The notes under the pieces are model-generated. The model ran no database searches. It saw nothing but the letters and a program-made list of their open reading frames with translations, and was not told where the DNA came from. A program made the position numbers and the translations under genes. From a virus (lineage: Duplodnaviria > Heunggongvirae > Uroviricota > Caudoviricetes), in the IMG/VR virus record IMGVR_UViG_2563366840_000014, positions 1-24,668 of that record: 24,668 bases of DNA; one strand, given 5' to 3'. This document shows, piece after piece, positions 11,020 through 12,161 of this stretch. Within the stretch, counting starts at the first letter, position 1; every line of letters begins with the position of its first letter.

Positions 11020-11508
11020 ATGAGTCTTTTGAATGAAGTTCAGAAATTCATTGAAGCCCATCCGGGGTGTACTTCCGGAGACATTGCGGATGCTTTTGCA
11101 GGTTACTCACGGCAGCGCGTTCTGCAGTCAGCAAGCAAGTTACGTCAGAGTGGGCGTGTGGCTCACCGTTGTGAAGGAGATACACGCAGACATTTCTCGC
11201 GCCTGACTGAGAGAGCGCAGGAGCCGGAACCACAACCAGTTCGTGAAACCAGACCTGTGCGCAAGTTCTATGTCGGCACTAACGACCCCCGGGTGATTTT
11301 GTGCCTGACCCGCCAGGCTGAAGAACTGGAGTCGAGGGGCTTATACCGTCGTGCTGCAACGGTGTGGATGGCGGCATTCCGTGAAAGCCACTCCCAGCCA
11401 GAACGAAACAATTTTCTGGCGCGTCGTGAACGGTGTTTACGGAAAAGCAGTAAGCGGGCTGCATCAGGTGAAGAGTGGTATCTCTCAGGGAATTACGTGG
11501 GGGCTTAA
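11020..11508 (+). CDS. Putative regulator with PerC/ANR-like C-terminal motif
   Basis: C-terminal ELESRGLYRRAATVWMAAF resembles the PerC-family signature (recalled); start is 11014 or 11020. Confidence 0.45.
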   Translation: MSLLNEVQKFIEAHPGCTSGDIADAFAGYSRQRVLQSASKLRQSGRVAHRCEGDTRRHFSRLTERAQEPEPQPVRETRPVRKFYVGTNDPRVILCLTRQAEELESRGLYRRAATVWMAAFRESHSQPERNNFLARRERCLRKSSKRAASGEEWYLSGNYVGA

Positions 11509-12161
11509 TGAGTAATAAATATTGCCAGGCGCTGGCGGAACTGCGGAACAAACCAGCCCATGAACTGAAGGAAGTGGGCGATCAGTGGCGCACGCCGGAC
11601 AACATTTTCTGGGGAATTAACACCCTGTTTGGCCCGTTTGTTCTGGATCTGTTCACTGACGGTGATAACGCCAAATGTGCTGCGTATTACACGGCGGAAG
11701 ACAACGCGCTGGCGCATGACTGGTCAGAACGCCTTGCGGAGCTTAAAGGTGCTGCCTTTGGTAATCCCCCATACAGCCGCGCCAGTCAGCATGAGGGGCA
11801 ATACATCACCGGCATGCGTTACATCATGAAGCATGCCAGTGCCATGCGTGATAAAGGCGGGCGCTATGTTTTCCTGATCAAAGCTGCCACCAGCGAAGTG
11901 TGGTGGCCGGAAGATGCAGATCATATTGCTTTTATTCGCGGGCGTATTGGTTTTGAACTGCCTGCCTGGTTTATCCCGAAGGATGAGAAGCAGGTGCCGA
12001 CAGGCGCTTTCTTCGCTGGTGCTATTGCTGTTTTCGACAAGACCTGGAAGGGACCGGCAATCAGCTACATCGGGCGCGATGAACTTGAGGCATGTGGTGA
12101 GGCCTTTCTGGCGCAGGTTCGCCAGCAGGCAGAAAAACTGGTCAGGGAGATGGCGGCATGA
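11508..12161 (+). CDS. Phage N6-adenine DNA methyltransferase (Dam-like, orphan)
   Basis: NPPY catalytic motif (FGNPPYS); start overlaps the upstream stop (TAATG) after a GGGGG RBS; no adjacent restriction gene. Confidence 0.8.
   Translation: MSNKYCQALAELRNKPAHELKEVGDQWRTPDNIFWGINTLFGPFVLDLFTDGDNAKCAAYYTAEDNALAHDWSERLAELKGAAFGNPPYSRASQHEGQYITGMRYIMKHASAMRDKGGRYVFLIKAATSEVWWPEDADHIAFIRGRIGFELPAWFIPKDEKQVPTGAFFAGAIAVFDKTWKGPAISYIGRDELEACGEAFLAQVRQQAEKLVREMAA

Follow-up and report, generated by a model that had tools for sequence, protein, structure and literature searches.

What might a prophage gain from an adenine methyltransferase that has no restriction enzyme beside it, and which sequence would such an enzyme mark? 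The question is raised by a gene in a 24,668-nt stretch of tailed-phage DNA, which was analysed whole and is called the window below. The 217-residue product of the gene is referred to as MTase. Its reading frame runs intact from an ATG start to a TGA stop, and the whole protein exceeds the curated cutoffs of two families: PF05869 ('Dam'), with E=9.8e-46 and 156 bits against a Pfam cutoff of 28.1, and the TIGR01712 equivalog 'phage N-6-adenine-methyltransferase', with E=1.5e-76 and 255.6 bits against an NCBIfam cutoff of 97.05, aligned over profile positions 1-165 of 165. The PADLOC MTase_II model PDLC03263 matches with all 217 positions covered (E=5e-158), and the protein is also assigned to PHROG 111. 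In strain C9, a 100%-identical copy at the same coordinates carries the PGAP label 'phage N-6-adenine-methyltransferase' (WP_001433188.1). A preliminary description of this DNA had read the gene as an N6-adenine methyltransferase with an NPPY motif; the family matches and the presence of NPPY at residues 86-89 bear this out. The gene is an ordinary one, of an already annotated and very common prophage kind.

Table 1. Features of the MTase gene and of the operon around it (window coordinates).
Feature	Position	Strand	Basis
Phage DNA N6-adenine methyltransferase (MTase), 217 aa, intact form of K-12 YfdM	11508-12161	+	PF05869, TIGR01712
W27-R-T29-P30, N-terminal 'WxTP', resembles gamma-class motif X	11586-11597	+	alignment conservation
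F44-VLDLF-T50, motif I-like AdoMet-binding strand ending in D47	11637-11657	+	alignment and model
N86-P-P-Y89, catalytic motif IV	11763-11774	+	read from sequence
YfdN/PerC-family protein, upstream neighbour	11014-11508	+	PF06069 E=7e-9
108-aa protein with LexA DNA-binding domain (LexA-DBD) only, downstream neighbour	12158-12484	+	PF01726 E=3e-19
pR-like promoter TTGACA-18-TACATT, most likely drives MTase operon	8861-8890	+	promoter scan, 10/12 matches
CI-type prophage repressor (HTH_3 + Peptidase_S24)	8173-8826	-	PF00717 E=4e-25, PF01381 E=1e-15
Cro-like ORF	8922-9119		pR-like promoter between CI gene and Cro-like ORF
Antiterminator Q, right end of delayed-early operon	14668-15462	+	PF03589 E=3e-54
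Strongest terminator-like hairpin of + strand	15570-15591	+	just downstream of Q

Every residue that is invariant in a 27-sequence alignment of relatives (25-89% identity) is found in MTase. T29 and P30 of WxTP are invariant and W27 nearly so; L46 and D47 of the motif I-like strand are invariant, as are N86, P87, P88, Y89 and S90 of the NPPYS stretch (nt 11763-11777). In the structure model (pLDDT 76.7 for the whole protein), WxTP and the acidic residue of motif I sit in confidently modelled elements, with a predicted β-strand at residues 44-48 (pLDDT ~88-93). The motifs follow the order WxTP, LD-L-F, NPPY, and D47 is separated from N86 by 39 residues, with no inserted domain in alignment or model. 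MTase is predicted from the model to be a minimal methyltransferase devoid of a target-recognition domain (TRD), and the model does not explain how such a fold would read any DNA sequence.

In this motif order, and in the missing TRD insert, MTase is gamma-class-like; Dam has the alpha-class order. WxTP is similar to motif X ('xTP') in M.TaqI and HsdM. A Foldseek search of the PDB returned only weak matches to class-I and gamma-class methyltransferases (E ~0.01, TM 0.26-0.42), the best being the gamma-class enzymes M.TaqI, HsdM and DrdV (E ~0.01, TM 0.26-0.40); METTL3/14 matched poorly (probability 0.06-0.16). A PDB sequence search with MTase found nothing, and the family is without a solved structure.

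The label 'Dam-type' in the preliminary description stands in one sense, as the name of the PF05869 family is indeed 'Dam', and fails in another, since homology to E. coli Dam and its family PF02086 is undetectable. The PF02086 profile gave zero matches to MTase even at E<=10, BLASTP against K-12 Dam gave E=1.8, and hhalign assigned the pair a probability of 3.5%, confined to the PPY region. E. coli Dam, T4 Dam and DpnM (PF02086, alpha-class) are likewise orphan, AdoMet-dependent N6-adenine methyltransferases with a (D/N)PPY motif, and GATC is possibly a common target; in these enzymes a TRD separates motif I from motif IV, and in MTase there is none. If both kinds of enzyme read GATC, this would be a convergence, for which Bujnicki et al. 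in 2001 reportedly argued in the case of HP1 Dam. The word 'Dam' in the family name thus neither implies homology to the host enzyme nor proves that GATC is the target.

Of 5426 complete E. coli genomes, 2120 contain a sequence that is at least 95% identical to the gene, 1725 of these holding at least 80% of its length, and YfdM-type enzymes are extremely common in prophages of E. coli, Shigella and Salmonella. The gene is also found in phages SfII, mEp460 and 1720a-02; the last appears to hold both a YfdM-type gene and an M.EcoGII-like one (the latter per PMC5778455). With dN/dS values of 0.047 against the Salmonella orthologue and 0.043 against the Cronobacter orthologue, MTase is under strong purifying selection.

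The K-12 gene (b2356, in the cryptic prophage CPS-53/KpLE1) corresponds to MTase residues 1-89 at 99% identity and codes for only 91 aa, a stump broken off at NPPY and lacking the C-terminal half of the fold, whereas the window gene is complete. Its neighbours match those of the window, with yfdN and an O-like fragment (yfdO) on one side and yfdP/Q/R on the other. The only functional report that we found on YfdM describes a ΔyfdM phenotype in K-12 (bioRxiv 10.1101/413146), which shows that at least this copy, in the repressor-less CPS-53, is expressed. We dropped the report as support for a methylation mechanism, because a protein that stops at NPPY is unlikely to be an active methyltransferase.

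Relatives ~70% identical to MTase form single proteins with C5-cytosine DNA methylase domains (P0246, P0248, P0253), in Cronobacter prophages the orthologue and a C5 MTase are arranged in tandem, and in a Chi-like Klebsiella phage a 48%-identical homologue lies near a C-specific methylase. As its homologues are fused to cytosine DNA methylases or placed beside them, we infer that MTase acts on DNA: it is most likely a small stand-alone AdoMet-dependent DNA N6-adenine methyltransferase.

That the gene has no restriction partner, as the preliminary description had stated, holds both in the window and in the closest complete prophage. A Pfam scan covered 28 of the 56 window ORFs of at least 90 aa, picked as likely genes, up to the window's end at base 24668. 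Among the scanned ORFs, which code for lambdoid early, lysis and head functions, there is no restriction endonuclease; the only nucleases are RusA, a DUF968/HNHc_6 protein and a terminase-associated HNH protein. PADLOC found no defence-system partner in the window, where the neighbours of MTase are PerC, LexA-DBD, RusA, KilA-N and DUF968 genes. The closest complete prophage, that of strain YD786, was covered from its left end as far as the last baseplate and tail genes displayed, and has no restriction endonuclease in that span. On this coverage, the gene does not belong to a Type II restriction-modification system, and MTase would not act as half of one.

The host element is a mosaic SfII/CPS-53-like lambdoid prophage, with an operon in the order pR, Cro, CII-like, O-like, PerC/YfdN, MTase, LexA-DBD, RusA, KilA-N, DUF968, Q. 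The PerC-family TAA stop overlaps the MTase ATG by one base (TAATG) and the MTase stop overlaps the start of the LexA-DBD gene (ATGA); the O-like, PerC, MTase, LexA-DBD and RusA genes, overlapping by 1-4 nt, form a translationally coupled chain. Promoters and terminators were called as consensus matches, and the pR-like site would act as pR; operator-like palindromes lie just upstream of it (GTAGGCAATCCTAC) and over its -10 region (GTTGGATATCCTAC). On the + strand, the promoter scan found no promoter-like site between pR and the MTase gene. A position between pR/CI and Q is also kept in SfII, mEp460, LLS, and Salmonella and Cronobacter prophages.

Because it lies inside a CI-repressed pR operon without a promoter-like site of its own, MTase should be silent in lysogens and is most likely made in lytic growth alone. 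Other prophage methyltransferases were silent under the growth tested in SMRT methylomes, namely M.EcoGI and M.EcoGII in the lysogen (PMC5778455), M.EcoMIV/MV (PMC4659465) and the putative prophage methyltransferases of 95JB1 (PMC6602927). Comparing the methylomes of a lysogen and a cured strain, the check suggested in the preliminary description, would be uninformative, as a repressed gene yields no extra motif; a GATC target, if that is what MTase has, would be hidden there, since host Dam already methylates GATC. A motif missing from the lysogen methylome is not evidence that the repressed MTase is inactive.

We consider it fairly probable that, as a whole, the locus encodes a delayed-early orphan YfdM-type methyltransferase for lytic methylation of phage DNA, with GATC as the most probable target. 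In the lysogen, the CI repressor would keep the gene off. Upon induction or infection, MTase would be produced alongside the proteins for replication and recombination and would methylate the fast-replicating phage DNA that host enzymes modify incompletely, so that packaged genomes would carry complete m6A marks. In P22, lambda and L, host Dam leaves the DNA of the virions under-methylated, as replication outruns modification (PMC8022706). Since there is no cognate endonuclease, MTase would have an anti-restriction or self-marking function. Protection of phage DNA, one of the roles suggested in the preliminary description, is the most plausible one.

The case for GATC is one of analogy with the nin-region Dam of Stx phages (175 aa; Stx2-86 gp73 'dam'), a PF05869 member (E=1e-64) that is 31% identical to MTase (E=5e-12). 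The two have the WxTP, LD, NPPYS and GR-x-F motifs and the Pfam/NCBIfam family in common; the Stx-phage enzyme is likewise an orphan and likewise delayed-early, between the replication genes and Q. GATC is the reported target of M.EcoVT2Dam (PMC6602927; PMC7556043). We infer that M.EcoVT2Dam is the 175-aa nin-region gene, because the Stx2 prophage Phi14 of 95NR1 carries both an M.EcoGV-like enzyme and M.EcoVT2Dam (PMC6602927), and M.EcoGV is an MT-A70 enzyme. By this 31%-identical relative, GATC is the probable target of MTase; of the pair, the Stx-phage enzyme is the only one whose specificity has been assayed. For the YfdM subfamily we found no published specificity assay in the full-text literature, where mentions of PF05869 or TIGR01712 are method lists.

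The window holds 97 GATC sites, about as many as expected (observed/expected 0.82-1.01), which speaks neither for nor against GATC as the target. An enzyme for GATC looks redundant in a dam+ host. Phages T1 and P1, the T-even phages and Stx phages nonetheless carry one despite dam+ hosts. This is documented in part in PMC7556043.

A different specificity is the alternative that fares best, and we regard it as possible, if rather doubtful. The enzyme and its lytic timing would be the same, and the YfdM subfamily would have a target other than GATC, either another short site or relaxed, near-nonspecific recognition. Phage DNA would thereby be shielded from a wide range of adenine-sensitive systems of Types I, II and III, as it is by M.EcoGII, Hia5 and Serratia PhiOS31_p25. 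Two other architectures occur among the non-specific adenine methyltransferases of phages and prophages, and these enzymes too are silent in lysogens (PMC5778455, PMC3299994, PMC7556043). The TRD is absent from the MTase model, and identity to the GATC-reading relative is only 31%, with insertions peculiar to the subfamily on either side of the catalytic loop. MTase is 42 aa longer than the Stx-phage Dam, with a long C-terminal helix and four insertions, placed in the alignment at the N-terminus, before NPPY, after NPPY and after the GRIxF motif; any of them could alter recognition. A toxic promiscuous enzyme could be tolerated if confined to a lytic operon, and a non-GATC target would explain the strong selection on the gene in a phage of a dam+ host. 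HP1 Dam and T1 Dam, however, are PF05869 members that target GATC, also without a TRD. The Stx-phage Dam, another member lacking the domain, is also reported to be GATC-specific (PMC6602927, PMC7556043).

The known non-specific enzymes, moreover, come from other families. M.EcoGI/M.EcoGII (beta-class, 349 aa) and Hia5/Hin1523 (alpha-class, 281 aa) are likewise prophage orphans with a presumed anti-restriction function, but they differ from MTase in family and motif order and have a recognisable though divergent TRD region. M.EcoGII, of ~349 aa, has DPPY N-terminal to FxGxG and a central TRD (PMC5778455). Compared with this published description, the 217-aa MTase departs from the beta-class M.EcoGI/GII pattern, its motif I-like element preceding NPPY. 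We dropped an identity of MTase with the non-specific M.EcoGII or Hia5, as class and size differ in the papers on them (PMC5778455, PMC3299994). Two other enzymes were set aside: M.EcoGV as a member of the PF05869 family, being MT-A70 with DPPW, and M.EcoGIX as a prophage enzyme of the YfdM kind, being plasmid-borne and specific for single-stranded DNA in the literature.

Methylation might also serve the phage as a life-cycle signal instead of protection, by licensing the terminase or packaging, by timing replication, or by sparing hemimethylated recombining DNA from nicking by MutH; this we hold to be improbable. It would suit the co-transcription and translational coupling of MTase with the O-like replication and RusA recombination genes, and Dam methylation is established to license packaging at the pac site of P1. 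However, the head genes and the HNH-assisted terminase here form an HK97/P27-type module. As modules of this kind are generally of the cos type, a Dam-dependent pac site is not expected. MTase is also dispensable in this phage group, as SfIV, which matches the PerC and repressor genes on either side, has no MTase annotated. A preprint from the Wood laboratory proposes a packaging role for YfdM that aids the T1-type phage SW1 (10.1101/413146), but the K-12 protein of that work, ending at NPPY, is unlikely to be an active methyltransferase.

The preliminary description had put forward, as another possible role, an alteration of host gene expression, and a prophage-expressed MTase could in principle reprogramme the host through a new chromosomal methylation motif. 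The PerC family includes virulence regulators in EPEC and EHEC prophages, and MTase is an orphan. In addition, the methylase M.EcoGIII of an Stx-phage restriction-modification system is cited in PMC6602927 as changing the expression of ~1900 genes. Such an effect in the lysogen is nevertheless very unlikely here, as MTase sits in the repressed delayed-early pR operon with no promoter-like site on the + strand from pR to the gene, and other prophage orphan methyltransferases were silent in lysogens by SMRT or RT-PCR.

Finally, M.EcoPA8orf6770P, a prophage MT-A70 enzyme annotated as a DNA adenine methyltransferase, methylates 16S rRNA together with the wHTH protein PNB-2 (PMC10810198). It and M.EcoGV resemble MTase in being small, prophage-borne, annotated as DNA adenine methyltransferases and next to a wHTH gene; they differ in having DPPW and the MT-A70 fold, in lying near the prophage left end, in requiring PNB-2 and in favouring 16S rRNA. 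The MT-A70 profile gave no match to MTase, whose motif is NPPY and whose wHTH neighbour is not conserved. We give hardly any credence to an MTase that is not primarily a DNA enzyme or that requires a nucleic-acid-binding partner, with the coupled LexA-DBD protein as candidate: the M.EcoPA8orf6770P precedent, the TRD-less model and the overlap of the MTase stop with the start of a wHTH-only protein would agree with it, but in Salmonella RusA comes immediately after the orthologue (89% identical), the order in LLS is O, MTase, KilAC, a C5 MTase stands between the MTase and LexA-DBD genes in Cronobacter, SfIV has the flanking genes annotated and no MTase, the fusions in the family are to DNA C5-MTase domains, and NPPY/PF05869 is found here against DPPW/MT-A70 in the precedent. 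Synteny in Salmonella, Cronobacter, LLS and SfIV also led us to drop the LexA-DBD or PerC protein as an obligate specificity partner.

As it stands, MTase matters little: it is an accessory gene of lambdoid prophages that is annotated as a matter of routine. That the YfdM subfamily, which ~40% of complete E. coli genomes contain, constitutes a TRD-less, lytic-only adenine methyltransferase of distinct or strongly relaxed specificity seems to us unlikely. If true, SfII/CPS-53-type phages would be broadly immune to adenine-sensitive restriction systems, and there would be a third architecture for promiscuous m6A methylation beside M.EcoGII and Hia5. An experimentally determined target of a YfdM-type enzyme would inform predictions of phage-host range.

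The MTase is encoded by an intact reading frame in which the NPPY motif occupies residues 86-89 (nt 11763-11774). Three independent profiles match its product: Pfam PF05869, 'DNA N-6-adenine-methyltransferase (Dam)' (E=9.8e-46); the NCBIfam equivalog TIGR01712, 'phage N-6-adenine-methyltransferase', covered entirely (E=1.5e-76); and the 217-position PADLOC model 'Type II methyltransferase' (E=5e-158). The frame and these matches bear out the preliminary description of an NPPY-type N6-adenine methyltransferase. PGAP annotates exactly this frame as WP_001433188.1 in a 100%-identical copy from E. 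coli strain C9, and 2120 of 5426 complete E. coli genomes carry a sequence with at least 95% identity. The gene is present in phages vB_EcoM-720R4 (a 99.9% match across the surrounding 3.8 kb), SfII, mEp460, 1720a-02 and many Stx2c phages. It is under strong purifying selection, with dN/dS of 0.047 against the Salmonella orthologue and 0.043 against that of Cronobacter. Its sequence, context and conservation hold no surprise for a gene of a known kind that is annotated as a matter of routine. RefSeq labels it 'phosphoadenosine phosphosulfate reductase' in NC_021857 (SfII), NC_019716 (mEp460), NC_052991 and NC_053000. The misnaming probably traces to PHROG 33262, a 495-position profile from PAPS-reductase::MTase fusions to which the MTase aligns at positions 283-492 only; relatives P0249 and P0264 carry such a fused PAPS-reductase domain.

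The label 'Dam-type' stands as a Pfam name (PF05869) but not as kinship to E. coli Dam: BLASTP against the K-12 enzyme gave E=1.8, hhalign a probability of 3.5% in the PPY region only, and the PF02086 profile no match even at E<=10. In an alignment of 27 relatives (25-89% identity), the invariant positions are an N-terminal W-x-T-P (W27, nearly so, T29 and P30), a motif I-like L46-D47 that closes the first strand, N86-P-P-Y-S90, S129, W132 and R144-G-R146-x-x-F149. Motif I comes first, 39 residues before motif IV; as read from the alignment, this order is that of the gamma class, with no inserted or appended target-recognition domain (TRD). The AlphaFold model built from the same alignment, of moderate confidence (mean pLDDT 76.7, pTM 0.77), has a compact Rossmann-type core, after which residues 190-216 form one long helix at the C-terminus. 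A PDB sequence search was empty, with no solved structure in the family. Foldseek gave only weak matches in the PDB (E about 0.01, TM 0.26-0.42), to the gamma-class DrdV, M.TaqI and HsdM of EcoR124I and EcoKI and to the RNA methyltransferases TrmM and KsgA; among predicted viral structures, the good matches were to further phage proteins named 'DNA N-6-adenine-methyltransferases' (lowest E 1.5e-11).

Residues 1-89 have a 99%-identical counterpart in yfdM of E. coli K-12 (b2356, in the cryptic prophage CPS-53), which ends at NPPY; by this comparison the MTase is its intact form. The sole functional report for the YfdM subfamily (bioRxiv 10.1101/413146) states that propagation of the T1-type phage SW1 needs K-12 yfdM, and there the protein was proposed to act for SW1 as a 'Dam methylase'. 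Because K-12 YfdM is a truncated 91-aa product without half the fold, it probably cannot methylate, and the SW1 result is no evidence on methylation.

The window is a lambdoid prophage of mosaic composition. Among complete E. coli genomes none matches it over its full length; the best reaches 90% coverage at 98.3% identity. At its left edge (1-708 (+) and about 1100-1300; compare L006 11691-13174) the window begins within a host DUF2713 gene, and this end showed no integrase gene. A dusA-type integration site is suggested by a fragment of a tRNA-dihydrouridine synthase gene, incomplete, at the prophage edge in the closest genome. In the leftward early arm, the pyrophosphohydrolase-DUF551, 5'-deoxynucleotidase and exoribonuclease together form a nucleotide-pool and nuclease set.

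Features of the prophage, from Pfam scans of large ORFs and from signal scans (window positions, unless another locus is named)
Feature	Position	Strand	Remarks
Rv2179c-like 3'-5' exoribonuclease	2591-3166	-	leftward early arm
dATP/dGTP pyrophosphohydrolase fused to DUF551	3163-4122	-	leftward early arm
YfdR/YfbR-like 5'-deoxynucleotidase	5147-5710	-	leftward early arm
YfdQ/DUF2303			leftward early arm
CI-type repressor	8173-8826	-	
Promoter-like site TTGACA-18-TACATT	8861-8890	+	between CI and Cro; best on + strand
Cro-like ORF	8922-9119		
CII-like	9147-9731		rightward chain
O-like HTH replication protein	10076-11017		rightward chain
PerC/YfdN	11014-11508	+	rightward chain, directly before MTase
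MTase ORF	11508-12161	+	217 aa, ATG to TGA, no interruption
LexA-DNA-binding-domain-only protein	12158-12484	+	directly after MTase; PF01726 E=3e-19
RusA	12481-12870		rightward chain
KilA-N			rightward chain, between RusA and DUF968/HNHc_6
DUF968/HNHc_6 protein	13701-14696	+	331 aa; weak HNHc_6 nuclease match, PF16784 E=4e-6
Antiterminator Q	14668-15462	+	end of rightward chain
Terminator-like hairpin	15570-15591	+	after Q; strongest on + strand
Holin, endolysin, Rz, HNH, P27-type small terminase, large terminase, portal			beyond Q
E. coli K-12 yfdM	L003 8113-8388	-	N-terminal 89 residues of MTase; L003, K-12 locus

From the O-like gene to RusA, neighbouring genes share 1-4 nt (GTGA, TAATG, ATGA, ATGA), which indicates a single translationally coupled transcript. 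Operator-like palindromes lie just upstream of the promoter-like site and across its -10 region, and the + strand scan between this site and the MTase found no further promoter-like site. From the coupled chain, the promoter-like site beside CI and the hairpin after Q, we infer that the MTase should be a delayed-early gene of nin-region type, repressed in lysogens. The PerC-family domain of YfdN is confined to its C-terminal third (residues 100-151), and in Cronobacter and some Salmonella prophages the protein encoded ahead of the MTase is a shorter version, about 80 aa long. With the GTG start that is listed for it, Q shares 29 nt with the DUF968 gene; its true start is probably later, because PGAP places that of the equivalent gene in the related YD786 prophage downstream of DUF968.

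The gene does appear to be an orphan, as first described. Pfam scans and PADLOC found no restriction endonuclease or defence-system partner among the window's large ORFs. The prophage runs past the window's end, and YD786, the closest complete prophage, shows no restriction endonuclease or defence-system partner from its left end through the last baseplate and tail genes listed. Phage LLS and prophages of Salmonella and Cronobacter have the MTase in the same slot (after O/PerC, ahead of RusA or KilA), likewise without a restriction endonuclease. The DUF968 protein, conserved immediately before Q in every related prophage inspected, was rejected as a restriction partner since it is found also without the MTase (SfIV).

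The missing TRD, and the overlap of the MTase stop with the start of a gene for a wHTH-only protein, prompted a test of this LexA-domain protein and of PerC as obligate partners. Synteny rejects both: RusA directly follows the 89%-identical Salmonella orthologue, LLS has the order O, MTase, KilAC, and in SfIV, which matches this stretch, the annotation lists PerC and repressor genes and no MTase. The LexA-like protein, translationally coupled to the MTase, consists of the N-terminal DNA-binding domain alone (108 aa, no S24 autocleavage domain); such a non-cleavable binder, if made lytically, could bind SOS boxes or disturb host LexA.

The substrate is likely DNA, given the company that relatives keep. 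P0246, P0248 and P0253, relatives at about 70% identity, each include a fused C5-cytosine DNA methylase domain, Cronobacter prophages carry a 287-aa orthologue directly upstream of a 660-aa C5 methyltransferase (L007 3001-5843), and in a Chi-like Klebsiella phage a C-specific methylase lies three genes from a 48%-identical homologue. By the fusions and the tandem, a two-enzyme methylation cassette fills the MTase slot in some phages.

For the very common YfdM subfamily, we found no specificity assay in the literature. T1-like phages carry related genes; HP1 Dam and T1 Dam are GATC-specific members of PF05869. Bujnicki et al. reportedly argued in 2001 that HP1 Dam gained this specificity by convergence with host Dam. 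The nin-region 'dam' of Stx phages (175 aa; PF05869, E=1e-64) is a distant branch (31% identity to the MTase, E=5e-12). GATC methylation is reported for M.EcoVT2Dam, the enzyme of phage VT2-Sa (PMC6602927; PMC7556043, citing Radlinska & Bujnicki 2001). As one Stx2 prophage bears both M.EcoVT2Dam and an M.EcoGV-like enzyme (PMC6602927), and M.EcoGV is of the MT-A70/DPPW type, we infer that M.EcoVT2Dam is the nin-region gene. For the MTase itself, GATC is our best guess, at roughly even chances. The window's 97 GATC sites (observed/expected 0.82-1.01) give no hint either way, because their frequency is roughly as expected.

Among the rivals, ranked here by likelihood, a different or relaxed specificity is possible but comes well behind; that the enzyme is specifically TRD-less with non-GATC or relaxed specificity is slightly more doubtful still. 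Non-specific prophage enzymes belong to other families. The beta-class M.EcoGI and M.EcoGII (349 aa) are silent in the lysogen (PMC5778455), and Hia5 and Hin1523 are alpha-class (PMC3299994). Methylation as a packaging or replication signal is unlikely. That the enzyme is expressed in lysogens as an epigenetic regulator is more improbable again, and the suggestion that the enzyme alters host gene expression does not fit its place in a repressible pR operon. The proposed comparison of lysogen and cured methylomes, with a missing extra motif as refutation, would fail, since a repressed gene adds no motif and GATC activity would be masked by host Dam; in published SMRT methylomes, other prophage methyltransferases are reported as silent under the growth conditions tested (PMC5778455, PMC4659465, PMC6602927). 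Hardly credible is an RNA-directed or partner-dependent enzyme: M.EcoPA8orf6770P, which methylates 16S rRNA together with the wHTH protein PNB-2, is of another family, MT-A70 (PMC10810198).

The protective role first suggested is plausible, and we favour lytic methylation of phage DNA. pR would transcribe the gene only once CI is inactivated, or upon infection, and the MTase would be made alongside replication and recombination proteins, methylating adenines of replicating phage DNA ahead of packaging. This would fit the known incomplete methylation of lambda, P22 and L virion DNA by host Dam, whose activity replication outruns (PMC8022706). Reasoning from the absent endonuclease partner, the benefit may be twofold: no unmethylated or hemimethylated DNA would be left, and the phage would be shielded against m6A-blocked restriction systems in its next host.
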